Virus record (IMG/VR): IMGVR_UViG_3300033545_000001
Span: 32,001-96,000 of that record
Direction: 5' to 3' (one strand)
Length of the DNA: 64,000 bases
Origin: a virus
The notes under the pieces are model-generated. The model worked only from the letters and a program-made list of their open reading frames with translations. It did not search any database and was not told the DNA's origin. Within the stretch, counting starts at the first letter, position 1. Every line of letters begins with the position of its first letter. Of the stretch, positions 23,199 to 62,663 are shown piece after piece. A program made the translations under genes and the position numbers.

Positions 23199-24283
23199 TT
23201 ACTGTAGATCAGATGAGATCTACGCTTATGACAGTAGATGAGGCTTACGAGACTTTATCTAAGTCAGAGCCTATAACTGAATATCCTTTGGAGACAGGAA
23301 ATTCTGTATTCTATCTTGATGATGCTTGGAATCATGGCCTAGATGCTAAGGATGGCAATGAGCAAGTAGGTGCTTCAGTGGTCATCGGGGGTCACGAGGT
23401 GCCCATGACGAAGGATGCGATACTTCAAGCAGCCTCTCTGTGCGGCCTCTCGGGGGCTTACGTGAAGAAGACGCCCTCCAAGCTCATTGAGCCCCACCTG
23501 AACTACTGGTACGGCTCTCAGGGGCTTGGTAATCGCCCTGCTAAGATTCTCGTGACCAATGAGGTAGCATCGGCTGTCACTCGTCAGAGTATTAATCCGT
23601 TCAGCAATATAAGACTGCTTGACAGCGTGCTGAATGGTATAAAAGATTCTTTTGGTGATGAAGAAGTATTAGTGGACTCTAAGTTCCATCATTCAGTCAC
23701 AGGAACCCACATGAGGCTGGTACTTCCACAGAGAAGTTTTATCATTAATGACAGCGGGGTGGATGATGACGAGTGGTGTATGGGACTAAGTTTCCATAAT
23801 TCGCTTGTAGGAAAGACTAAGACAAGTTTAGATGGTTATTTATTCCGTTGGTGGTGTTTGAATGGAGCTATCGATACTAAGGCTTCTTCAGGAACTTGGA
23901 CTAGGAGCATAGGACCTTCTGATGAGGATGGTATATACAGTTGGGCTAAAGAGATTGTAGGCAACATTATCAGCCCTCTTGATCAGTCAGCTCATCTCCT
24001 CCAAGAAATGACAAGTCAGTCTATTGAAGGAGATGTTAATCAAATTCTCAGTGATCTTTTTGAGGATTACAGGCTCCCTGCAAGAGACCGTAAGGCTATT
24101 ATTGCTAATATGGTAGAAGAAGATAGTCTTACTATGTATTCTCTTATGCAAGCAGTGACTGAGATAGCCAATGATATGAGTCTTAGTCCTTTAGAACAGG
24201 CAAAGCTTATGCATGTAGGAGGAGACTTAACACACTCTTCTGCACACCGATGCGAGTCTTGCCACAGGATAGAAAAGATGTAA
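23195..24283 (+). CDS. DUF932-like conserved phage protein
   Basis: NSLVGKT..SLDGYLFRWWCLNG and TMYSLMQAVTEIA patterns. Confidence 0.6.
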   Translation: MITVDQMRSTLMTVDEAYETLSKSEPITEYPLETGNSVFYLDDAWNHGLDAKDGNEQVGASVVIGGHEVPMTKDAILQAASLCGLSGAYVKKTPSKLIEPHLNYWYGSQGLGNRPAKILVTNEVASAVTRQSINPFSNIRLLDSVLNGIKDSFGDEEVLVDSKFHHSVTGTHMRLVLPQRSFIINDSGVDDDEWCMGLSFHNSLVGKTKTSLDGYLFRWWCLNGAIDTKASSGTWTRSIGPSDEDGIYSWAKEIVGNIISPLDQSAHLLQEMTSQSIEGDVNQILSDLFEDYRLPARDRKAIIANMVEEDSLTMYSLMQAVTEIANDMSLSPLEQAKLMHVGGDLTHSSAHRCESCHRIEKM

Positions 24284-24284
24284 T

Positions 24285-24851
24285 ATGAGAAGATACCACA
24301 GGGCTGACTACTCTGGGCAAACATTCGGAGAACTTATGGCTCTTGAAAGAGATTCAGAAAATTCTAAGAAATGGATTTGCGAGTGCAGTTGTGGAAAAGT
24401 TACTTCTGTGTTTGGAGGTAATTTGACTACTGGTAGAACCAAGTCCTGTGGACATCTTCTTGATAGGTATAGAAACAGCTCTCCAGGATATATGGGCTAT
24501 AAAGACATCTCTGGCCGTAAATGGGCCTCCATAAAGGCAGGGGCTGATGCTAGAGGTATAGATTTCATGCTTGATATAGAAGATGCGTGGGATTTATTCA
24601 GGGATCAGGATAGAAAATGCGCCTTGTCAGGACAGCCTCTGAAGTTTGATGAGAAGTCCTACACCAGGGATGGAAATGCTTCTTTGGATAGAATAGACTC
24701 ATCTATGTCATACACTTTAGATAATGTTCAATGGGTAGATAAGGCTATCAATATTAGTAAGTGGGCAATGTCAGATGCTGAGTTCATAGATATGTGCTGC
24801 TTGATAGCCGACTACCAGAGGTCTTGCCACAGGTTGAGCACTGTGGTATAA
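24285..24851 (+). CDS. Free-standing HNH-type homing endonuclease
   Basis: WICECSCG...L..G.TKSCG N-terminus; CALSG...ASLDRIDS...Y...NVQWV...IN..K. Confidence 0.85.
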   Translation: MRRYHRADYSGQTFGELMALERDSENSKKWICECSCGKVTSVFGGNLTTGRTKSCGHLLDRYRNSSPGYMGYKDISGRKWASIKAGADARGIDFMLDIEDAWDLFRDQDRKCALSGQPLKFDEKSYTRDGNASLDRIDSSMSYTLDNVQWVDKAINISKWAMSDAEFIDMCCLIADYQRSCHRLSTVV

Positions 24852-44587: not shown

Positions 44588-45082
44588 ATGGCTAACGACT
44601 ACACTTCGGGAATTTACACTCCAGGTGATTCATACCAGGAGATTCCAGTTCCCGGATTCATCAAGCCTACTCACACATATGGTGAGACTTTTGGTGACGA
44701 ATTCCACGCACCTACAGTATTTGAACTTCTAGCCTCTACAGATGGCGGCTTCACTCAGCGCGGTGTTATTCTAGCTGGTGGGCAGGGAGTTCTACTTACA
44801 GGAACTGTTCTAGGTCAGTTCACATCAGGTGCTAATCAGTACCTATACGGTGTATACAACGCATCTCACAGTGATGGTTCTCAGATTCCTCTGGGTTTCC
44901 TACGTAATGGTGTAGACACTGGTGGCACAAACAGTCCAGCAGGTCTTCCAGCAACAAACGTTGCAGGTCTTCTTGTAGACCGTGGAATTCTTAACTACAA
45001 CGTAATTTCAGGACTAGACACTAACGCTATCAACAGTCTAAACGGCCGTCTTGATAACGCTGTTAATCGTTTCTACTTCTAA
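44588..45082 (+). CDS. Head decoration protein (lambda gpD/HDPD-like)
   Basis: GQGVLLTGTVLG...Y....SDGSQ.P.GFL; lies between scaffold and capsid. Confidence 0.75.
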   Translation: MANDYTSGIYTPGDSYQEIPVPGFIKPTHTYGETFGDEFHAPTVFELLASTDGGFTQRGVILAGGQGVLLTGTVLGQFTSGANQYLYGVYNASHSDGSQIPLGFLRNGVDTGGTNSPAGLPATNVAGLLVDRGILNYNVISGLDTNAINSLNGRLDNAVNRFYF

Positions 45083-45091
45083 GATTAGCAA

Positions 45092-45125
45092 AAGAAAGAC
45101 CCTCTCAATTGAGAGGGTCTTTCTT
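45092..45125. terminator. Bidirectional terminator
   Basis: Palindrome AAGAAAGACCCTCTCAATTGAGAGGGTCTTTCTT between convergent genes. Confidence 0.85.
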
Positions 45126-45780
45126 ATTTCTCTGACAGGTATTTAGCAAGGTGCAGTAATCTGTCAGGGTTATCTTTAAAGAAGCCTTCTGTAATGTTGC
45201 ATTCTAAATGAAGTAGGCCTCTTATGCATTTTCCACATGATGCCCCTCTCGAACAGCAGGCGTGGTCATGATCTATGACTAGTCTTCTGCCCTCTTCTGG
45301 GGGTTCTAAGCATCCTATGCATACTCCTGCCTGGTTATTTAAAAGCTCTATATATTTATGCGAGCTTATGGAATATCTTTGGAAAGCTTCTTCTTTTCTC
45401 CTGCACTCCCAAGAACAGTAGATTTGCCTGTTTGGCGAATATGTTCTGGATACAATAAATTCTTTGCCGCAGAAAGCATGAGCACATATTTTCTGAATTA
45501 TGGGCCTGCCTGGGCAGTGTATCCCGCAGGTAATTTGATTTGAAGCTCTTGGTACGTATTCATTGCCACATACTGTACACACGCTTAAAGTGACATAGTT
45601 TGCTTTAGACATATCCCTAGCTTTAGCTGTGTACCTACACCTCCTAGGTGAAGGGCAGAACTTTTGACTTTTCCTTACAGGGATGTAGTTTTCATTGCAT
45701 ACAGGGCAAAATCTTACAGACTTATCCCATATTCTATCTTTTCTGGTTCCCATTTTTCCCTTTCTACAGACTTCTGTCAT
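45124..45780 (-). CDS. Endonuclease VII-like homing endonuclease with zinc-finger repeats
   Basis: Three CxxC...Q..C...C repeats; Q.GVCIGC...IDHDH.CC...CGKCIRGLL...CN; start uncertain. Confidence 0.85.
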   Translation of the reverse strand: MTEVCRKGKMGTRKDRIWDKSVRFCPVCNENYIPVRKSQKFCPSPRRCRYTAKARDMSKANYVTLSVCTVCGNEYVPRASNQITCGIHCPGRPIIQKICAHAFCGKEFIVSRTYSPNRQIYCSWECRRKEEAFQRYSISSHKYIELLNNQAGVCIGCLEPPEEGRRLVIDHDHACCSRGASCGKCIRGLLHLECNITEGFFKDNPDRLLHLAKYLSEK

Positions 45781-45942
45781 ATTAATATTAATCGGAAGTT
45801 CTGTCAAGTAACTTCCGATAGACTAACTAGGCACTCCTAGTGCTAGGTCAGCTGAGTGGGCTCACTAGAGCGGCGCAGACCGGTCACTGTAAATTATTGT
45901 GACGCTGCCCTTATTGTCCGTTTATATATAGGAGTCCCCTTT

Positions 45943-47007
45943 ATGCCTAATATTTCACTACTTGAGCCAATGGTCCTTAATGGAGTAGTGCAGAAGTTCA
46001 CAGCCCCTCAGAACCTGGCTCTTCTGCCTAATATCCCATCTAGCCCATCAAACGCACCTGACTATGTGACATGGGACGTTCTAAAGGGTAGTCGTCAGCT
46101 TGCAGGCTTCAACCTGCCAGGTGCTGAGGCTCAGACTGTAGACCAGCTTGGTCGTACACAGGAAAGCGCTCAGCTCGCTTACATCCGTCTAAAGAAGGTT
46201 TTCCAGCCACAGCTTATGCACTGGCTACGTGAGCCTGGACAGATTGCTACGACAAATGCTGAGGCTATGGTCCTTCGAGAGCTTCAGGATCTTTCACAGC
46301 GTATTGATCTTGTACAGGAGCAGCTCCTATGGAATGCTCTCCGTGGAACTAGTACAATCACTTACCCAGATGGATCATCAGCAACAGTTAACTATGGTTT
46401 CCCAAGCTCTCACATTGTTACTCCGTCTGTTGGCTGGGCTACAGCTACTCCAGAGAACATCATCAACGATCTTGTTACTTGGAAGCGTCTAGTACAGACA
46501 CACGGTCGCGTTAAGCCAACCACAGCTTACTGTTCAATCTTGACTATTCAGTCTATCTTCAACTCATTCGCAGCTAATGCAACTGCTGTAGTAACAGTTG
46601 GCACACCAACTAATACTCAGGCTGTTGCGCCAATGGGTGGAATGCTTTCAGATCGTATGAAGGACACATACTACACCAACGGAATTCTTCCTGGATTCGC
46701 TGGACTTGACTGGATTCCAGTTGAGGAAGTATACACCAACTCAACAGGTTACCTAACAAGGTTCGTTGGCGATGGTACTTCAAACAACGCTGAGGTCTTC
46801 CTTGGTAACTTCACTGAGCAGCGTCCTTTCGAGGTTAAGCTTGGTAAGTCTGCTGACGACTCAGCTCCAGAAGGAATGTACGGCAAGTTCACCAAGACTT
46901 GGAAGCAGGAAGACCCTTCTGCTCGTATCGTACTAATGGAACTACACTTCCTCCCAGTTGTGTACCGTCCAGAGCAGTTCATCTATTGCGCTAATGCATA
47001 CGCATAA
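45943..47007 (+). CDS. Major capsid protein (lambda gpE-like)
   Basis: AGGAG RBS before ATG 45943; size, position, strong codon bias, downstream terminator. Confidence 0.85.
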   Translation: MPNISLLEPMVLNGVVQKFTAPQNLALLPNIPSSPSNAPDYVTWDVLKGSRQLAGFNLPGAEAQTVDQLGRTQESAQLAYIRLKKVFQPQLMHWLREPGQIATTNAEAMVLRELQDLSQRIDLVQEQLLWNALRGTSTITYPDGSSATVNYGFPSSHIVTPSVGWATATPENIINDLVTWKRLVQTHGRVKPTTAYCSILTIQSIFNSFAANATAVVTVGTPTNTQAVAPMGGMLSDRMKDTYYTNGILPGFAGLDWIPVEEVYTNSTGYLTRFVGDGTSNNAEVFLGNFTEQRPFEVKLGKSADDSAPEGMYGKFTKTWKQEDPSARIVLMELHFLPVVYRPEQFIYCANAYA

Positions 47008-47936: not shown

Positions 47937-48542
47937 ATGGGTGACGGATTCCCAACATTTACTGTAGCTCAATTGGCTCAATTCTCTGGCAGGCCACTAC
48001 AGTCATATACCCCATATGCTGATCAAGCATTGATTCAAGCTGTAGTAATTTTTATGCTTGTTACTCAGGTAGAGTCATGGCCTACAGATGCATTATCTCA
48101 GCAGATTGCTACACTGGGCATCCTTCAGTATGCAGATGTATTAGTTCTAGAGCAGCCATTCCAGCAGGTTACTCACAACCCATTCCAGAGTCAGACAATT
48201 GGTTCTACTTCCTACTCTAAGCCAACAGCCTACATGCGTGGAAATGCACAGGCTAATGCTCTTAAGGGTGAGGCTACAGGAATTCCATTCTTTGACTACG
48301 CAGTACAGAAGCTTGCTCTTCGTACAGAGTTCGGCGGAATTTACGGGTTCTCACTAGAGCTTGAAATGGGTCGCGGAGATGGCGATGTTTGGGTACGTGT
48401 AGATCACAAGACTGGTGAAATTAAGCTAGTAGGTCCAGCAGAGCGCGATCGTGAGCTTGGAATCTTCGCTGGTGGAGATATGAATGCTGAGAATTGGCCC
48501 GCCGATGAAGGTAATGGCAGCTCAGGCGGGATGTGGTCATAA
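47937..48542 (+). CDS. Probable head-tail adaptor
   Basis: FQSQTIGSTSYSK motif; synteny. Confidence 0.65.
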   Translation: MGDGFPTFTVAQLAQFSGRPLQSYTPYADQALIQAVVIFMLVTQVESWPTDALSQQIATLGILQYADVLVLEQPFQQVTHNPFQSQTIGSTSYSKPTAYMRGNAQANALKGEATGIPFFDYAVQKLALRTEFGGIYGFSLELEMGRGDGDVWVRVDHKTGEIKLVGPAERDRELGIFAGGDMNAENWPADEGNGSSGGMWS

Positions 48543-49058
48543 GTGGCTAGAGTGCAAGAGCCTTACTGTAATCAGCCACACTGTGAAGATGAGTCTTTTT
48601 CCTTAGACATGTGTAGAAGGCATTATTCTAAGCATTTAAAAGGCAGAGGGCCTAAGTCATGTGAGCATTGCAGTGTTCCTATGAATAATTTAGGCAGAAA
48701 CCAAGGCCAGCGTAAGTATTGTTCTACATGCTCTCCAGTAGGGGATTCTGAAGCTAATCAGCTTTTATGGAAATACCAATTGTCTCGTCCAGAGTATGAT
48801 GCTATGTATGAAGATCAGTTGGGCTTGTGTGCTATGCCAGGGTGTGACAGAGAAGCTAAAGAAGTAGATCACTGGCACGGCTGCACAGAGGGCCATAAAA
48901 ATCATAGGGCTTGTAGTAAGTGTGTTAGAGCATTACTGTGTAGGAATTGTAATAATAGACTAGAGCCAGTGGAGGACGAAATGTTTAGAGAAGCAGCACT
49001 GGCCTATCTAGATCAGTTTGAAAACCCTGGCAGTGGCGGAGGAGGTATGTGGAGCTGA
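48543..49058 (+). CDS. Endonuclease VII-like homing endonuclease
   Basis: KYQLS..EY..M...Q.G.CA...VDHWH...CVRALLC..CN. Confidence 0.85.
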   Translation: MARVQEPYCNQPHCEDESFSLDMCRRHYSKHLKGRGPKSCEHCSVPMNNLGRNQGQRKYCSTCSPVGDSEANQLLWKYQLSRPEYDAMYEDQLGLCAMPGCDREAKEVDHWHGCTEGHKNHRACSKCVRALLCRNCNNRLEPVEDEMFREAALAYLDQFENPGSGGGGMWS

Positions 49059-54188: not shown

Positions 54189-57100
54189 GTGCCTAGTGTA
54201 CCTGGAGATCACACATACGATGTGGTTTATCGCGCAACTGCTGACTTCACAGATCTCTTCGCTGAAGTAGCAGCAGCCAAGGCTGCGATGGAAGAGCTCA
54301 AAGAGAGCACTGACGATACCAACTCTTCTAGTGAAGATGGCGCTAAGGCCGCCGCAGATGCTGAGGAAGCTCGCACTAAGGCGATGCAGGATGCCTCAAA
54401 GGCAGCCAAGGAATATGAGCAGCAGCAATTGTTGCTCAACAAGGCTGAGAACAATGGCTTCAACACGCCCCAGGAAGCTAAAGCTTTCCGTGATCAAGAT
54501 ACTCAGAGTCTTTTACAGCACAACATTCAAGAAAATGGTGGACGCACAAGTCCAGACCAGGCTCTTCAAGATATTCGCAATAAGACTGCTGCCCTAAATA
54601 GTGAGAATGCATCTCTTGCTGAAATGCGAGAGACCATTGATGAGTCCACTAACTCTCTCCAGGATGCCAGTAAGGCAGCTCAAGATTTTCAAGACAGCCT
54701 AGAAGATCTTGAAGAAGGTTCTCAGGATGTTAAGCAGGCTGTAGAAGATACAGGTCAAGCTCTAGATGATTTCTCTTCTAAGTCTAAGAGTGCTGGAAGT
54801 AATGCTTCTCAAACTGGAAACAATCTAAAAGATATTGCTGAGGGAGCTTCTATAGCTGCCAGGGGTATTGATGATGTAAATCAATCTCTTGATGAAAGCT
54901 CTAAGGCATTTTTGGAATATCAGCAAGCTCGCAAAGATGCCAACTCTGCTGCAAACCAGACTCCTACAACTTCATTAAACACTTCTATTGGCAATGCCTC
55001 AACTGACATTGAAGAGGCCATGCGTGAGCAAGCAGCAGCAATTGCTGCTGCCAATCAGTCTCGCAATAACATGTCAGCTGAATCGTTAGCAGAGTCAGCT
55101 GAAAAGAATGCTGCAAACAATGTCTCTACTGGGCTGTTCTCGGCAGAGGCTCTTAATGGCGCAAAGAACTTTGCAGAAGAAGTAGAGGAAGAAGTAACTC
55201 CTGCTGTCAAGAATGCTGACAGTGCTTTGAAGGCTGCTGGGCAATCTGCTTCTGGTCTAAGCGATGAATTTGAAGCTTCTACTGCTCAAGGTGTTGTTTT
55301 ATCAGCTGCTATGGCTGACGTGGACAAGAAGGTAGAAGGACTTTCTAATAACCTCAGCAGCGGCTTCTCTTCTGCTTTTGTTAAGCAGCTGGGTGGAGTT
55401 CTCAAGGATTACAATTCTGTAGCTAAGGCCGCTACTGGCTTAGATGACCCTTCTGCACGTCAGTGGGTAGTTGATACAGGCAATGAACTTGACAGTCTGG
55501 CTGTGCAGCTTCAGGAGACTCAGAAGGGCATAGAGGGAGTTGGAGGAGCATTTGAATCCTCTGGGGATGATGCTGACAACTTCGGAACTGTGCTTTCAAA
55601 GGTTAATAGTGCGTCTGCTGTAATTCTAGCTAGTAACCTAGAATCTATTGAGAACAAGCTAGCTAAGATGCACAGCGATCTTGAGACTGGCGGTAATGAC
55701 TGGGATACCTTTGCATCAAGTATTGCCAAGACTAACTCGCAGCTGAATGCTGCCACAAAGCAAGCAGCTGCACTAGATGATCCTGCTGCTAAGAATGCTG
55801 TAACTGATCTTAAGATTGCATTCGATTCTTTGTCTATGCAGGCATTGGCATCTAGAGATGATGTTGATGTATTCACTGCTTCTGAAATGAAGAACAGTGC
55901 AGCTTCGGTAATTCTAGCTAGTAATATAGAAGCTATTGAAGACAAGCTCACTAAGATGAGCACTGATCTAGAAGCTGGTGGAAACGACTGGGATGCCTTC
56001 TCAGTAAGTATTGCTAAGACCAACGCTCAGCTTAACGCTGCTTCGAAGCAGGCAGATGCTCTAGATGATCCTGATGCAAAGAATGCTGTCAATGATTTGA
56101 AGGAAGCCTTTGGTTACCTATCTCAGCAGGCACTTGCATCTAAGGACGACCTAGATGTATTCACTGCTGCTGAGAGCAAGAACAGTGCAACTTCTGTACT
56201 GCTTTCTAGTAACATAGACAGTGTAAGGTCTAAGGTAGACGATCTAGAGAATTCTCTGAAGTCTGGGGACTCTGCCTGGAATGACTTCATTGTAGCTCTA
56301 ACTAAGGCCAACACTGAGTTGGCAGGCGTAGGAAAGCAGGCTGGGACTCTAGGAGATACTGAATCTAGAAATTCTATAAATGCTCTACAGCTAGCTCTTA
56401 ATGATATAGCTGTACAGGCTCTAGGCTCTAAAGATGATTTGGGAGCATTCAAGACTGCTGAGGATGTGGCAGCTGAGAGTGCTGCCAAGCTTGCTGCTGC
56501 CACAAAAGATGCAAAGACAGCTGCCTATGAGGCAACAACCACTTATAAAATATTCGCTAGTGGCCTTAAGGCAATTTCTAATGAATTTGCATCTTTGTCT
56601 GCTCAGACAAAAGCAGAAGGCGGAGGAAGTGGATTCTTAGGATTCCTAGGTAATTTCTTAGGTGGAGGACTTAGCGGAGTTTCTTCAGGATTCAATGCTC
56701 TAGCTACTGCTGCTGGAAGCGCACTTCCCCTAGTTCTAGGTCTTTCTGTAGCTATTCCTGCTGTTGCTACAGCTATTGTAGGTCTTGCCACAATAGTTGG
56801 AGGTTTAGTAGGCGCTATGGCGCCAATGGTGGGTATATTTATCACCTTCTTGCCTATTATTCTAGGTGTGGCAGAGGCTGCTGGAGTTCTATATCTTGCT
56901 ATTGAACCACTGATCTCTGCTGTCAATGAATTCAGACAGGCTACTACCAAGAGCGGAGCAGAAGCTGCCCTCAAGGGACTTAGTCCTGTCATGGCACAGG
57001 CAGCTAAAGACATTGCTGGATTTATCAAGGCTCTTACTGGAGCTAAGGGAGCCCTTAAGGATATTGGCACTGAGGTATTCTCTCCTCTCCTGGGATCTCT

Positions 57101-60100
57101 TAGTAAGTTAAGTACTGTAATTAAGCCTGTTGAAGAGGCTTTGAATACAATGGCTGGAGCTGCGGGTAAGTTCCTACAGCCAGTTCTTGCTGGATTCGTC
57201 AATTTCTTGGACAGCTCTAATTTCCAAACCTTGACAAAAGCAGCTGCTGACGGACTTGTGTACTTTGGTGGAACTGTATCCAACTTCCTAGATGCTTTGG
57301 GCAAGTTGGCAACTGATGCTGCTCCTTACACAGTTCAAATTGCTAAGATATTTGATGATCTGTCAAAGGCTCTAAATACATCTGTATCTGTAGGATCTAG
57401 TGATGGAAGTATCAGCACATTCCTCAATCAGATGATGACAGGATTTGGAATCCTGTTTAACATCATCAGTGGAATCTTTGATATTCTAGCCAAGTGGGGT
57501 CCTGCTCTTGCTCCTATTGGCAATCTTATTGGAAATGATCTAGCTAAGGGACTCCATGATGCAGCTAATGCTGCTGACAGTGTTGACTTTAAGCAGTGGA
57601 ACAGTGAGCTTACCCAGTTCATTTCAGGAATTGGAACAGCGGCCAAGGGTATTGGTACACTATTTGCAGCTCTAGTAAATAACAAGTTCCTAGGATTCCT
57701 TGGAGACATCCTTACTGATATTGGACATATTGCTACTGCTCTGGCTCCTATTGTCAAGTTCTTTACTGACATTGTTGCAGGATCTCTACCTGCTCTACAG
57801 AAGATATTCAATGATATCTCTGGTGTAGTAGTGGGCATATTGAAGCCTATTGATGACTTCCTGGATAAGGTAGAGCAGAACAAGGACGCCATGAAGGTCC
57901 TTTCCGGAATCTTCACTGCTTTGGCTTCTCTGGTTATCGCTGGAAGTGTTCTCTCATTCTTCAGCATGCTGGGAGGATTGGCAGGTAAGGGATTCTCAGG
58001 CCTTATAGATCTTATCAACAAGATCCCTGGAATCAATCTTCCTGGAGGATCAGGCGGAAGTAGTGGAAGTAGCACTCCCGTAGTAAGCGCTATCAACAAG
58101 CTTGGTGTTGATGTAAGTGCTAATGCTGATGAGAATGCTGCAAAGATTGTCACAGCTATTACTGGGGAAGAGACTGAAGAAGGAGTAGCAGGAGAAGGTG
58201 AATCAGCAGCTGGTGCTGAAGCTGCTGGTATTGGAGCTACTGCTACTATTGCGGGCATTGTTACTGCTGTTTTGGCATTCCTTGGTGCAGGATTCCTTAT
58301 CTACGAGATTATTCATGGAGCTGCTGATCCTAATTCTACGGTTCACAGGGCTAACAGTTATGTTACTCAGCATGATGGGGCTAATTGGTGGGACAGGGAA
58401 GTAGCTGGACCCGCTGATAGAGATGTGTATGATCCTACTGGCCGTGGAATTGCTGGCGCCGCTAAGGGTCTTGCTGATATTAATAAGACTGCTGTTCCTG
58501 ACTTCTTTACAGATGACACTCAGTGGGAGAAGGATGCTAATAAGGCAATGATCGCATTCTTCACAGGTAACGCTGGTTGGGAGAAGGCATCTAATACAGC
58601 TATTCCTGACTTCTTCACAGACAAGTCTGAATGGGAAAGGACTGCGCAGAGAGCTGTAGGGGACTTCTTTACCAATAATGATGAGTGGGAGAAGGCTTCT
58701 GAAACAGCAGTTGGACATTTCTTCACAGACAACACTGCTTGGGAAAAGGCTGCTAATCATGCTATAGCTGATTTCTTTACAGACAATACTGGCTGGGAGA
58801 AGGCTGCTGATAAGTCTATTTCAGGGTGGTTCAGCAGTGCTGGCGAATGGTTCATGCGTGATGTGTATGAGCCTATCGAGAAGTGGGTAACTAACGACTT
58901 TGTCGGATTCTTCACTAACTCAGTAGCCCGCTGGTTTACTGATGCTGGCTCATGGTTCATGAGAGATGTTTATGAGCCTGTAAAGAATTGGGTTACTGGA
59001 GACTTTGTAAACTTCTTTACTAGCTCTATTCCTCACTGGTTCGATGATGTAACCACTTGGTTCATGAGAGATGTCTATAATCCAGTAGAGCATTGGGTTA
59101 TGAATGATATCCCTGGATTTTTCACTAATTCTATCCCTAACTGGTTCTCCAGTGTGTGGAAGGAATTCCAGAAGAATGTTGTTGATCCTATTGGTAACTG
59201 GCTGACGGGTACTGGAAGTGATTCACTGACAGGATTCTTTGAAGCTGGATTCAAGGATGCTCTTAACGCTGTAATCAAGGACGTATTCAACAACGGACTT
59301 ATCCATCTATTGAATGATGCTCTTGGTGTAGTAGGTCTGAAGATTCCTAACATTCCTACATTCGCAGCAGGAGGCCATGTACAAGGCAACCTAGGAGAAG
59401 CTGATAACAGCGATTCTGTATGGGCTAAACTGACTCCCGGAGAATTCGTTATTCGTAAGAGAGCTGCTGCTGCTCTTGGACCAGACACTCTGGCTCAATT
59501 GAATCAGGCAGACAGGCCAGGAGCTATTGGCAAGCACGCTAATGGAGGATACGCAGGAGCCTTCGCAGGCGGCGGTATAGTAGGAGACGTAGAAGGCTGG
59601 GGAAGCAGCCTGCTTTCAGGTGCTGAGGGCCTAGTAGGAGACGTGGCTAGCTGGGCTTCAAGTTTCGTCTCCGGAGCCCTACAGAGTACGTTTAATGAAG
59701 CTTACAAGGCTATCGTTAATCCTATCCTTGGCACCTTGCCTTCAGGCACTATTCCTACAGGAATGGCTACCTTGGCTGCTGGAAGTGTGAAGAATGCTGT
59801 AGATGTGTTCTTAGGAGCTCAGGATCAGAAGGCTGATGCTGCTGCAACAGGAGCAGTTGGAGGCTCTCTTCCAACTGGAGATCACAAGCAGATCATTGTT
59901 GAAGCTCTTCAGGCTGCTGGAGTTGCTGCTAATCAATGGCCTGTGTGGGAAACAGGATTGAACACTCTTATTACAAGAGAGTCTAGTTGGAATCCATCTT
60001 CTGTTAACACAACTGACTCTAACGCTGCTGCTGGGAATCCTTCAGAAGGACTTGCTCAGACAACTGGTACTACCTTCAATGAGTACCATGTGCCAGGAAC

Positions 60101-60470
60101 TTCTGACGACATTCTAGATCCTGTAGCTAATGTTGCTGCTGCCATTAAGTATATTGAAGATGTATATGGTTCAATTACTAATGTTCAGCAGGCTAATGCC
60201 AATGAGCCTCCAAAGGGTTATGCTACAGGCGGATTCGTGGGAGATCCAACTTTGGGAATGGGATTTGCTGCTGGAGGTTACAGTATGGCTCCTACAGCTG
60301 GAACTCCTTCAATGAAGTCTCAGGCTGGAATGAATGCTGGTGGAAGACTTTCTGGTCCTGGAGTTCATGTGGAAAATTTGAACATCACTAATCCAATTCC
60401 AGAGCAGTCAGGCGATTCTCTACAGAGAGCAATGACTCGCTTGCGCGTCTATGACGGGAGAGGCAACTAA
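54189..60470 (+). CDS. Tape measure protein with C-terminal SLT lytic transglycosylase
   Basis: 2093 aa, helical, Trp/Phe repeats, FAAGG...LTPGEFVI, RESSWNP...EGLAQ...DPVANVAAAIKY. Confidence 0.93.
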   Translation: MPSVPGDHTYDVVYRATADFTDLFAEVAAAKAAMEELKESTDDTNSSSEDGAKAAADAEEARTKAMQDASKAAKEYEQQQLLLNKAENNGFNTPQEAKAFRDQDTQSLLQHNIQENGGRTSPDQALQDIRNKTAALNSENASLAEMRETIDESTNSLQDASKAAQDFQDSLEDLEEGSQDVKQAVEDTGQALDDFSSKSKSAGSNASQTGNNLKDIAEGASIAARGIDDVNQSLDESSKAFLEYQQARKDANSAANQTPTTSLNTSIGNASTDIEEAMREQAAAIAAANQSRNNMSAESLAESAEKNAANNVSTGLFSAEALNGAKNFAEEVEEEVTPAVKNADSALKAAGQSASGLSDEFEASTAQGVVLSAAMADVDKKVEGLSNNLSSGFSSAFVKQLGGVLKDYNSVAKAATGLDDPSARQWVVDTGNELDSLAVQLQETQKGIEGVGGAFESSGDDADNFGTVLSKVNSASAVILASNLESIENKLAKMHSDLETGGNDWDTFASSIAKTNSQLNAATKQAAALDDPAAKNAVTDLKIAFDSLSMQALASRDDVDVFTASEMKNSAASVILASNIEAIEDKLTKMSTDLEAGGNDWDAFSVSIAKTNAQLNAASKQADALDDPDAKNAVNDLKEAFGYLSQQALASKDDLDVFTAAESKNSATSVLLSSNIDSVRSKVDDLENSLKSGDSAWNDFIVALTKANTELAGVGKQAGTLGDTESRNSINALQLALNDIAVQALGSKDDLGAFKTAEDVAAESAAKLAAATKDAKTAAYEATTTYKIFASGLKAISNEFASLSAQTKAEGGGSGFLGFLGNFLGGGLSGVSSGFNALATAAGSALPLVLGLSVAIPAVATAIVGLATIVGGLVGAMAPMVGIFITFLPIILGVAEAAGVLYLAIEPLISAVNEFRQATTKSGAEAALKGLSPVMAQAAKDIAGFIKALTGAKGALKDIGTEVFSPLLGSLSKLSTVIKPVEEALNTMAGAAGKFLQPVLAGFVNFLDSSNFQTLTKAAADGLVYFGGTVSNFLDALGKLATDAAPYTVQIAKIFDDLSKALNTSVSVGSSDGSISTFLNQMMTGFGILFNIISGIFDILAKWGPALAPIGNLIGNDLAKGLHDAANAADSVDFKQWNSELTQFISGIGTAAKGIGTLFAALVNNKFLGFLGDILTDIGHIATALAPIVKFFTDIVAGSLPALQKIFNDISGVVVGILKPIDDFLDKVEQNKDAMKVLSGIFTALASLVIAGSVLSFFSMLGGLAGKGFSGLIDLINKIPGINLPGGSGGSSGSSTPVVSAINKLGVDVSANADENAAKIVTAITGEETEEGVAGEGESAAGAEAAGIGATATIAGIVTAVLAFLGAGFLIYEIIHGAADPNSTVHRANSYVTQHDGANWWDREVAGPADRDVYDPTGRGIAGAAKGLADINKTAVPDFFTDDTQWEKDANKAMIAFFTGNAGWEKASNTAIPDFFTDKSEWERTAQRAVGDFFTNNDEWEKASETAVGHFFTDNTAWEKAANHAIADFFTDNTGWEKAADKSISGWFSSAGEWFMRDVYEPIEKWVTNDFVGFFTNSVARWFTDAGSWFMRDVYEPVKNWVTGDFVNFFTSSIPHWFDDVTTWFMRDVYNPVEHWVMNDIPGFFTNSIPNWFSSVWKEFQKNVVDPIGNWLTGTGSDSLTGFFEAGFKDALNAVIKDVFNNGLIHLLNDALGVVGLKIPNIPTFAAGGHVQGNLGEADNSDSVWAKLTPGEFVIRKRAAAALGPDTLAQLNQADRPGAIGKHANGGYAGAFAGGGIVGDVEGWGSSLLSGAEGLVGDVASWASSFVSGALQSTFNEAYKAIVNPILGTLPSGTIPTGMATLAAGSVKNAVDVFLGAQDQKADAAATGAVGGSLPTGDHKQIIVEALQAAGVAANQWPVWETGLNTLITRESSWNPSSVNTTDSNAAAGNPSEGLAQTTGTTFNEYHVPGTSDDILDPVANVAAAIKYIEDVYGSITNVQQANANEPPKGYATGGFVGDPTLGMGFAAGGYSMAPTAGTPSMKSQAGMNAGGRLSGPGVHVENLNITNPIPEQSGDSLQRAMTRLRVYDGRGN

Positions 60471-60518
60471 CTGCCGCTTGTAGTAAAAGTACAGTCATTG
60501 CGCAGTTAGGAGCCTTTT

Positions 60519-60566
60519 ATGAAGTGCAGTTCTTGCTTGGAGAAGTATGATGGACGTGGAAACTAA
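60519..60566 (+). pseudogene. Probable homing-endonuclease remnant fused to a duplicate of the tape measure 3' end
   Basis: AGGAG RBS; MKCSSCLEK-YDGRGN*, where YDGRGN* equals the TMP C-terminus. Confidence 0.6.
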
Positions 60567-60587
60567 TGGAGCCCATGGAGGCGTTAG

Positions 60588-61478
60588 ATGACTAACAGCG
60601 ATAACGAATATTGGTTCGTAGGTGGAACCAGTCTGAATCAGTACTGCTGGGCTGTTAACACTTTTGCTGCTGGACGAGCTGTTCCAGTTCTGCGTGGAAA
60701 TAACATTCAAGTAGCTTACATTCCCGGTCAGATTCATCGTCAGAAGTATCCTGACAGTAGAACTTTGGACTTTGCCATGTTTGTGGCTGCTGTTGATCCC
60801 ACAACTGATCAGCCTCCATCTCAGGCACAGAAGCTGATGTTCAGCAACAATGTAAAGACATTACAGAAATTGTTCTATAATTACAATGGTCAGGTTGCTG
60901 GACAGCAGATTCCTCTTACACGTCAATGGTACTATTCTCTTCCAATAAATATAGGAATGCCTCAAGGTGTTCCCACTATGGTACAGGCAACAGCTCAAGC
61001 TGAAATAGCTGGGGACCTTCAACTTACTATGAATGGTCCCCATTCGGCTAGTCTTACAGTAAGTCTTTTGTTAGCTGATCCCTATTTCTATGGGCCAGCT
61101 ATTACAGGAGCTGTACCAGTTAACACTACTGCCTCAAGTGTTATCAATACTGGTGATGATGTTGCTGCGTATTTCAATAATTCAGTAACATTGTATGGTC
61201 CTTTGCAATATCCTAGGCTATTGAATGCTACAACAAGTCCAAATACATGGTTCCAGCTTAATACTGTTATCTTAGCTGGGGATTCTGTAACACTGGATAT
61301 TGCCAACTTCACAGCTTATAGAGCTTCTGACGGGGCTAACCTGTCAGGACTTCTGAGCCATTCGGGGACTACTAGGTGGATGAGTTATTATCCAGGAGTT
61401 AACAGTCTTATTCTGAGTTCTAATAATAGCGGAGATACAGGAAGTGCTACATTTTCCTTTGTACCTCCTTATGTCTAA
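60588..61478 (+). CDS. Distal tail (Dit-like) protein
   Basis: Directly after TMP; LADPYFYG, PGVNSL patterns. Confidence 0.75.
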   Translation: MTNSDNEYWFVGGTSLNQYCWAVNTFAAGRAVPVLRGNNIQVAYIPGQIHRQKYPDSRTLDFAMFVAAVDPTTDQPPSQAQKLMFSNNVKTLQKLFYNYNGQVAGQQIPLTRQWYYSLPINIGMPQGVPTMVQATAQAEIAGDLQLTMNGPHSASLTVSLLLADPYFYGPAITGAVPVNTTASSVINTGDDVAAYFNNSVTLYGPLQYPRLLNATTSPNTWFQLNTVILAGDSVTLDIANFTAYRASDGANLSGLLSHSGTTRWMSYYPGVNSLILSSNNSGDTGSATFSFVPPYV

Positions 61479-61528
61479 TCCGATTGTTTATATGATTTTA
61501 CTCCTAGAGTCCATGGAGACCAGCATAC

Positions 61529-61723
61529 ATGACCCAAAATCGTTCTTTTTCTGCTGATCACGATCACTCTTGCTGCCCAAACCCTGCAAAAAGTTGCGGA
61601 GAGTGTATAAGAGGACTGTTATGTCAACGTTGTAATATGGCTTTGGGTCTCCTAGCTGATAATGTAGAAACTTTATTGAGGGCAGTAAATTACCTAAGTG
61701 GTGAGTCTAATTACACAGAATAG
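61529..61723 (+). pseudogene. Truncated endonuclease VII-like gene (C-terminal part only)
   Basis: DHDHSCC...[19 protein letters not shown]...RAVNYL; upstream domains absent. Confidence 0.8.
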
Positions 61724-62663
61724 ATATTACTCTAATCTAGCTCAGGCAACATTTATTGCCAATACAGGCGGATTAGGTATTTCTACAGCTTCTCTTCAGG
61801 TTACTGCTAATGAGAACTGGCCTACTCAGTTTCCATTCGCTCTTTGGTTAGAGCCGAATACTAACAATGCTGAAGTAGTCCTTGTAACATCTGGAAGTGG
61901 CACTTCTATTAGTCCTTATGCCATTACACGTGGCTATGATGGAACTATTGCCTTTGCTCACGCTTCTGGAGCTATTGTAACCCCTGGCGTTATTGAGCTT
62001 GACCTGGCTGATCCTCAGAATCATATTAATCTATCAGGATCGACTTCAGGTGCTCACGGTCTTCCAGCCTCAGCTTGGTTGGGAGGACAGCTTCAGCTTA
62101 TCAGCACTCAGACTGTCCTCACTCCACAGCCAACTGTGACTTTCAACTCAGCTGTGTTTGCAACTATTCCATCATCTATAAATCACCTGCTAGTAATGGT
62201 TCAGGCTCTGTCCTCTTCCCTGGCTAATAATAATGATTATTTAATGGTACAGTATAATGGATATACAGGCAGCTTTTACTGTGATGAATTCCTTCTAAAT
62301 GTCAATGGGACTAACACCACTGGCAACTCTGCCTCTAACACTTCCTCATCAGGTATGACTAACAACTGGCATATCAACTCCAGCATGGCTACTTGTGGAG
62401 TTATTATGACTACTGATGATGGAATAGCTTCTACAGGATACTGTGAGGTAGTATTCCCTAACTTTAAGAATACTGCAAATACTGCTCCAAGAGGTCATAA
62501 CTTCAAATTCGGTGGAAGTAATAACACAGTTCCTTATATAATCTCAGGGAATGGCAGTGGATCTTGTGCTAATGTGACAGCTCCTATTACTTCACTGACA
62601 TTCCAGACTATTCTAGGGTATAACTTCACAGCTAACTCTGTATTCCAGCTGTATGGTTTCTAG
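61698..62663 (+). CDS. Minor tail/fibre protein, paralog 1
   Basis: About 130-aa N-terminal domain shared with the next gene; start codon uncertain. Confidence 0.75.

Follow-up and report, generated by a model that had tools for sequence, protein, structure and literature searches.

The free-standing homing endonuclease genes of phage T4, the seg and mob genes, are located between genes or in introns, and to our knowledge they have not been described as bringing a recoded copy of the end of the gene that they invade. Replacement of gene termini by mobile elements is documented in fungal mitochondria (PMC3630166) and in yeast (PMC7282813). Fungal mitochondrial mORFs are described as forming ‘gene hybrids’, for example in atp6 of Allomyces macrogynus and in atp6, atp9, cox2 and nad3 of Glomus, by entering the end of an essential gene with a foreign copy of its C-terminus; the native C-terminus remains downstream and corresponds to the uninvaded sister genome, and the inserted copy is divergent. 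Likewise, the WHO elements at FBA1 in Torulaspora and Lachancea yeasts replace the 3' end of the target gene at each integration, without splicing. For phages, we found no description of terminus-replacing nuclease cassettes in a full-text literature search, nor in the accessible part of an ICP1 survey of phage nuclease genes, in which ‘duplication’ refers to repeats inside nuclease genes and not to host-gene termini (PMC10448857). Here, we analyze 64,000 nt of an uncultured soil phage (the window; bases 32001-96000 of the 119,392-nt virus record IMGVR_UViG_3300033545_000001, a metagenome assembly with 46% G+C), in which the end of the tape measure protein (TMP) gene is present twice ahead of the distal tail protein (Dit) gene. 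The extra DNA is likely to be the scar of a collapsed, terminus-replacing, free-standing homing endonuclease cassette, probably of an Endonuclease VII or HNH-like type.

The duplicated TMP end and its empty allele

The TMP gene ends on TATGACGGGAGAGGCAACTAA at 60450-60470 (TAT GAC GGG AGA GGC AAC TAA), and a second copy, TATGATGGACGTGGAAACTAA, lies 96 nt downstream in the same frame at 60546-60566 (TAT GAT GGA CGT GGA AAC TAA). The two copies are identical at 16/21 nt and are recovered as repeat family D1 by a repeat search of the region; all five differences (GAC/GAT, GGG/GGA, AGA/CGT with two, and GGC/GGA) are synonymous. Such a pair is unlikely to have arisen by chance, given that a 16/21 match was seen in 11 of 20,000 shuffles of the 200 nt downstream of the TMP end, and that of 300,000 trials with five random substitutions in the 21-mer, 40 were silent. 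The second copy terminates a mini-open reading frame (mini-ORF) of 15 codons with its ATG at 60519-60521 and a Shine-Dalgarno (SD) sequence, AGGAG, at 60508-60512, 6 nt ahead of it. Two in-frame stops, TAA at 60468 and TAG at 60507, separate the TMP end from the mini-ORF, so read-through does not link them. The assignment of the two flanking genes is based on profile matches and on conserved gene order, with Dit following TMP in relatives too; for TMP, the last 499 aa match 13 PHROG families, the majority annotated as TMP (best E 1.6e-29).

Parts of 59000-62000 are present in 20 public sequencing runs, and we compared contigs of four of them, from four other studies (X3-X6), with the window over 59000-62500. 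In one of these, X3 (a 20,323-nt contig with a depth of 12), the TMP-Dit junction is single-copy. The window segments 59000-60436, 60546-61544 and 61728-62500 match X3 with 2, 4 and 8 other letters, that is 14/3,209 nt or 99.56% identity, and at the joint from 60436 to 60546 X3 has 13 letters (AAGGCTGAGGGTA) where the window has 109 nt (60437-60545). Read by hand, the X3 joint runs from AC through A AGG CTG AGG GTA into TAT GAT GGA CGT GGA AAC TAA, encoding T R L R V Y D G R G N and the stop. The TMP end of X3 is the downstream copy of the window letter for letter, followed by a 21-nt spacer and then Dit. Hence, the downstream copy at 60546-60566 is the native TMP end, given that the single-copy allele uses it as such, and 60437-60545 is an insert of 109 nt that replaces 13 nt. 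Otherwise near-identical genomes are thus polymorphic for its presence at one precise site, and of the two terminus copies the inserted one is divergent in DNA and the displaced one equals the empty allele.

The recoding is more extensive than the 21-nt repeat suggests. Compared with the X3 allele, the first 34 nt of the insert re-spell the last 11 TMP codons with 12 nt changes in 36 and zero amino-acid changes (window/X3: ACT/ACA, CGC/AGG, TTG/CTG, CGC/AGG, GTC/GTA, GAC/GAT, GGG/GGA, AGA/CGT and GGC/GGA). All arginine codons (3/3) are swapped between the CGN and AGR families, and 12 random substitutions in this longer end were silent in 0 of 300,000 trials. The imported codons are rarer in the genome (CGC 0.11, GTC 0.10, GGG 0.10) than the native ones (GTA 0.40, GGA 0.40, GAT 0.66). 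One third of the positions differ in the TMP end compared with 0.44% in the flanks, which argues for block import and not for local drift. The end residues themselves are identical in 4/4 TMP variants of the 90% cluster (P0086-P0089); among 89 collected proteins, no carrier was found besides these four.

The duplication with its five silent differences and the mini-ORF with its AGGAG ribosome-binding site (RBS) had both been described in an original prediction made from the letters of the window, and direct reading confirms them. Its polarity has to be reversed, however: the prediction took the mini-ORF to carry a recoded end that had been left behind, whereas the mini-ORF carries the native end and TMP now uses the recoded copy. 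The recoding, given there as five silent differences, also extends five codons further upstream (T R L R V), to 12 silent changes over 11 codons.

The filled form is not an artefact of one assembly, as its left part is present in X4 (60308-60500) and X5 (60302-60483) and its right part in X6 (60526-60807), each with 0-2 differences; for these three contig sets, coverage refers to the pieces listed, and X4 is a metagenome whose contigs may derive from more than one strain. Because X3 and X4 share flank variants relative to the window (for example at 59738, 60230, 60863 and 60996) and yet differ in the insert, its presence or absence does not simply follow strain descent. No copies of the insert exist elsewhere in the 119-kb record, where the best chance match is 13 nt.

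Table 1 Features of the TMP-Dit junction and of the Endonuclease VII sites in the window
Feature	Position	Strand	Description
TMP gene	54189..60470	+	2093 aa; from the ORF list and PHROG matches; protein ends ...AMTRLRVYDGRGN
Imported, synonymously recoded TMP end	60437..60470	+	Third base of Thr, then R L R V Y D G R G N and stop; compared with the X3 allele
Hairpin	60458..60518	+	61 nt; 5' arm is the recoded last TMP codons and stop, 3' arm holds the mini-ORF SD; inverted repeat I1
Leader of the putative cassette	60471..60518	+	48 nt; holds AGGAG 60508-60512; not elsewhere in the 119-kb record; absent from the X3 allele
Mini-ORF, MKCSSCLEKYDGRGN and stop	60519..60566	+	15 codons; nine putative cassette codons (MKCSSCLEK) in frame with the displaced native TMP end
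Displaced native TMP end	60546..60566	+	Y D G R G N and stop; runs on into the native TMP-Dit spacer; same as the X3 TMP end
Native TMP-Dit spacer	60567..60587	+	21 nt; Dit GGAGG at 60577-60581; comparable to the 22-nt L002 spacer
Dit gene	60588..61478	+	phrog_33, E 5e-11; 60% identical to the L002 homologue
Site A nuclease	48543..49058	+	Intact 171-aa Endonuclease VII; PF02945 E 7.7e-12
Site 2 truncated Endonuclease VII ORF	61529..61723	+	64 aa; PF02945 positions 36-81, E 4.5e-14
Tail gene with replaced start	61698..62663	+	T Q N R Y recoded at 61713-61727 as ACA CAG AAT AGA TAT

The insert also contains a predicted hairpin, in which GGG AGA GGC AAC TAA and four further bases pair with a stretch containing the AGGAG of the mini-ORF. 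Within the 73-nt stretch 60452-60524 it folds at -25.8 kcal/mol (z -3.58), and 1 of 200 shuffles is as stable; the fold of 60420-60600 as a whole is ordinary (z -1.1), as is that of 60500-60600 (z +0.6). Native codons in place of the recoded ones would cost 3 of the 7 outer-stem pairs by hand count. Since the recoded end pairs with the SD of the mini-ORF, the replacement end and the leader look like one co-adapted unit. A ribosome finishing TMP would, according to the fold, open the hairpin and free this SD. Hairpins that mask the RBS are known from T4-type nuclease genes. A scan of 59800-61200 placed no promoter or terminator within the insert. A group I intron or other known RNA element was considered and rejected, with the sole Rfam match over 59800-62000 at E<=1 being a chance snoRNA within Dit that scores 22 bits, where the gathering threshold is 65.

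In more distant relatives, the junction follows the empty form. The DNA of 59900-61100 has zero matches in 50,697 phage records, and a Dit protein query returned 10 phage records, every one below 60% identity. Dit-homologue loci were found in IMG/VR (2), JGI metagenomes (17, one of them the contig of the relative L002) and GTDB genomes (1), all at <=60% identity, in searches from which the nearest records to the window may be missing. With the C-terminal 299 aa of TMP, 30 IMG/VR loci match at 37-73% identity, and Dit homology is absent there apart from L046, which is on the L002 contig. We examined 18 junction loci (L002, L003 and L051-L066), of which 17 are readable and one, L066, has too little upstream DNA; L003 and L064 are one virus twice, and L060/L061 and L062/L063 are near-duplicates. 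The junction is single-copy in 17/17 readable loci, and none of these has an intervening gene. TMP and Dit are -4 to 22 nt apart in 15 of them, and the near-identical L062 and L063 have a 71-nt gap by script, perhaps through a misplaced Dit start. The 117-nt gap of the window is an outlier, and subtracting 96 nt leaves 21 nt, compared with 22 in L002. TMP C-termini of the relatives share an aromatic-x-G-x-R motif (for example RVYGGRG, RVQGVRG and TYLGGKR, each directly before the stop), which indicates that YDGRGN is the conserved native end of the protein family.

Endonuclease VII genes at sister sites

A profile search of the record with Endonuclease_7 (PF02945) gives six matches, five of them above the curated cut-off. 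Three of the matches above the cut-off are within the window, at 45133-45384 (minus strand), 48759-49013 and 61535-61699, and two of these three sites, here called site A and site 2, share the layout of the TMP site. GIY-YIG (PF01541) has 0 matches in the record, and the matches to HNH and HNH_3 are all outside the window.

At site A, an intact nuclease ORF ends ...AYLDQF-ENPGSGGGGMWS and stop and is thus fused in frame to the native end, now displaced, that belonged to the upstream gene 47937..48542. The upstream gene itself now ends on a replacement that diverges in amino acids, ...NWPADEGNGSSGGMWS (DEGNGSSGGMWS and stop). In close relatives it ends ...NWPAQENPGSGGGGMWS (P0072), with P0072, P0074 and P0083 all ending ..QENPG(S/N)GGGGMWS. 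The displaced native end also contains the SD and the TGATG overlap of the following gene. The site A nuclease cluster additionally includes a 125-aa form (P0070) and a 359-aa fusion product (P0080).

The mirror layout, at a gene start, is present at site 2, which lies 1 kb downstream from the TMP site. Its truncated nuclease ORF has captured the native start of the tail gene that follows, ATG ACC CAA AAT CGT (MTQNR; 61529-61544), and opens on it; the tail gene has a recoded start in its place. X3 again has the empty form, as it skips 61545-61727 (joint from 61544 to 61728, with 2 letters between), and reads here as the beginning of P0066 (317 aa, from a contig of 132,780 nt) and of the L002 homologue, MTQNRYYTNL. 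The candidate starts of the tail gene in the window are now GTG or ATT, without a clear SD.

The best longer homologue of the 64-aa ORF of site 2 is P0010, a 170-aa form from a close relative (PF02945 E 2.7e-32), encoded on a contig of 5,539 nt; the same clusters also have a Dit variant and a tail-gene variant recorded on a contig of this length. P0010 starts MTQNRY and its end corresponds to the 59 C-terminal residues of the window ORF (57/59 identical), so that the window ORF equals P0010 without residues 6-111, an in-frame loss of 106 codons. Loose ends of X4 contigs at 61544/61545, read by hand, show the P0010 form (YEVCNLKGSS... and ...ATPWDYNQQ). From X3 and P0066, P0010 and X4, and the window ORF, it follows that the population holds the empty, full and half-deleted states of the site 2 cassette. 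The TMP site fits the next stage of decay, in which start and end are kept, the body is gone and the frame is preserved.

The start of the mini-ORF offers a further lead. It has the zinc-knuckle-type form M[KR]x(0-1)CxxC, which is frequent, not universal, among Endonuclease VII homologues (16/54, for example MRCSSCKRE and MKTCSSC). Among 2,988 ATG-initiated frames open for >=10 codons in the 119-kb record, 2 start in this way; one is the mini-ORF and the other (13732) is an internal Met of an unrelated 84-aa ORF. The endonuclease-like CxxC start proposed in the original prediction therefore stands as a motif, and we take it as a lead towards the Endonuclease VII family, not as proof of homology. 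The catalytic core of the family, DHDH...C..C.RG.LC..CN, does not occur in the 15 residues of MKCSSCLEKYDGRGN.

Three further Endonuclease VII or ORF arrangements were noted in passing. A minus-strand gene for a 227-aa Endonuclease VII (45124-45807) lies between the plus-strand ORFs 44588..45082 and 45856..47007, and no other gene of the late region is clearly on the minus strand; a terminus duplication is not visible in its flanks. Beyond the window, at about 118114-118668 of the record, an Endonuclease VII gene (VKQCIKC...) is bracketed by two mutually aligning 77-nt stretches, and its last codons overlap the second of these. In the window region 24257-24851, ORF 24285..24851 starts 1 nt past the stop of the upstream gene, and a 13-nt string, GTCTTGCCACAGG (S C H R), is identical near the ends of both ORFs and, unlike at the other sites, is not recoded.

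Proposed mechanism and alternatives

We propose that a cassette entered TMP 21 nt ahead of the end of its stop codon. Such an insertion would cut off the conserved TMP C-terminus, and the cassette would therefore have brought its own copy of the last 11 codons and the stop. This copy would have been spelled with different codons, so that neither copy would recreate the nuclease target and the two would recombine poorly. The native last six codons and stop would have been pushed downstream, still joined to the native spacer and the Dit start. The nuclease ORF would have begun at the ATG at 60519, with its RBS in a hairpin opened by the ribosome finishing TMP, and continued in frame across the displaced native end as far as the native stop. 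A later in-frame internal deletion would then have removed nearly the whole nuclease and fused MKCSSCLEK to YDGRGN and the stop. By analogy, and from a 6-residue N-terminal motif instead of homology, the lost ORF was presumably a nuclease, and it would have cut the empty allele. Continued delivery of ribosomes to the native stop ahead of Dit may be the reason why the remnant frame has been retained.

Several observations weigh against a collapsed nuclease cassette. The ORF between the two TMP-end copies is of 15 codons and not an endonuclease, and no full-length endonuclease was seen at the TMP-Dit site in any relative or run. The nine cassette codons that are left are too few for a homology test, and their degenerate back-translation matches 0 stretches in IMG/VR. 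A degenerate pattern for a donor TMP ending in YDGRGN and stop matches 16 IMG/VR stretches, of which 0/16 are TMP- or Dit-related. The 48-nt leader is without counterpart at sites A and 4, at which the nuclease ORF lies 0-1 nt after the upstream stop. Lastly, among the pieces listed no independent contig spans 60501-60525, with those of X4 absent from 60501-60620, and the empty allele is represented by one contig of one run.

The collapsed endonuclease insertion put forward in the original prediction accordingly survives in part. The insertion is upheld by an empty allele in a 99.6%-identical contig and by the two Endonuclease VII sister sites; the predicted polarity is not, nor was a full nuclease found at this site in any relative or run. 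Of the two outcomes that it had named for a check of the junction in relatives, a single-copy junction is what X3 and 17/17 readable distant loci have, and a full endonuclease gene was found in none.

The scar could also be more than a remnant. It might act as a non-autonomous homing element, with a cleavage-resistant junction and homology arms, that spreads with nuclease supplied in trans by a co-infecting relative or another cassette; its frame would be held open by selection for TMP-to-Dit coupling, through hairpin opening and the native stop 21 nt before Dit. We give this an outside chance. If true, cassette collapse would be limited to in-frame deletions, as is also seen 1 kb downstream.

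Compared with the collapsed cassette, a patch from a diverged phage, brought in by one legitimate and one illegitimate crossover and involving no endonuclease, is distinctly unlikely. The donor would have shared the 11 C-terminal TMP residues and carried a 48-nt spacer as well as the first part of a small gene, with the right join falling by accident 21 nt before the recipient TMP stop. The codon usage of the imported end does look foreign and nuclease sequence is not present at the site, both as expected of such a patch. It would, however, have to match exactly, and by chance, the way in which two nuclease-bearing sites of the window are arranged, be in frame with the displaced end and begin with the MKCxxC of the nuclease family, and a gene between TMP and Dit is found in no relative, near or far.

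It is very improbable that the mini-ORF is a selected small gene, either encoding a YDGRGN peptide that acts at the tail tip as a mimic of the TMP C-terminus or serving as a translational relay for Dit, with purifying selection on both copies. Although it has a strong SD at 6 nt, an intact frame and a stop that is the native TMP stop 21 nt before Dit, and the TMP C-terminus is conserved across relatives, the silent differences require no selection on the mini-ORF because the downstream copy is the unchanged native end, and the virtually identical phage X3 does without the ORF.

An assembly error in which the TMP ends of two strain alleles were placed in series is scarcely credible: the record is a metagenome assembly and both alleles occur in nature, but contigs from three further runs of other studies have the left or right part of the insert with 0-2 differences, and neither allele contains the 75 nt that separate the copies. 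An in-place tandem duplication of the final 96 nt of TMP, with later divergence, would account for copies exactly 96 nt apart and in frame, but we reject it, with next to no probability left, given that the 96-nt units in register share 40/96 nt, with likeness restricted to the 3' end (9, 7 and 7/12 in the last three 12-nt blocks, then 2 to 5/12), and that, with the flanks still 99.6% identical to the empty allele, there has been no time for the units to diverge this far.

Relation to described elements and repeats in TMP

A collapsed cassette would account for an odd and seemingly purposeful duplication without a new gene. The life cycle of homing endonucleases is, according to Goddard and Burt, said to consist of invasion, fixation, degeneration and loss. 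Here, empty, intact, half-deleted and almost fully deleted states occur among near-identical genomes in a similar manner, and the three sites together would represent every one of these stages in phage genomes of about 99.6% identity. Under the model, loss should be precise and restore the target, whereas the scar is imprecise and would be a cleavage-resistant allele without nuclease. As both deletions are in frame, translational coupling to a downstream essential gene may limit the decay of such elements.

The closest parallel is with the mORFs as described in PMC3630166, where, as in the window compared with X3, the displaced copy matches the uninvaded allele and the inserted copy is divergent. 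In contrast to the mORFs, the gene invaded here encodes a phage tail protein, the nucleases of the sister cassettes are of the Endonuclease VII type, the replacement covers just 11 codons and leaves the protein identical, and the nuclease would have been deleted to nine codons. The WHO elements are likewise homing elements that replace the 3' end of their target gene, but they encode intein-like LAGLIDADG/zinc-finger nucleases and are clustered on a eukaryotic chromosome, whereas here there is a single scar in a phage. T4-like free-standing homing endonucleases spread by cutting the empty allele in co-infection, and a dead element can persist and be carried along, a parallel to the scar. T4 mobE promotes the homing in trans of the defunct homing endonuclease I-TevIII (PMC2790892).

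If the reading of a collapsed cassette is right, phage nucleases can invade the last or first codons of essential tail genes by way of a re-spelled replacement end. For annotation, a short in-frame ORF that repeats the terminal residues of its neighbour could then serve as a signature of past nuclease invasion and of recombination boundaries.

A separate irregularity concerns the TMP gene itself. At 59000-59100, the contigs of all four compared runs step back by about 100 nt, with 4 letters between; this lies at the margin of the region compared and could be produced by the alignment. In addition, L002 has several staggered places that match the last 499 aa of TMP. The staggered matches and the step back point to tandem repeat units in TMP, possibly variable in copy number (variants of 2093, 2098 and 2028 aa).

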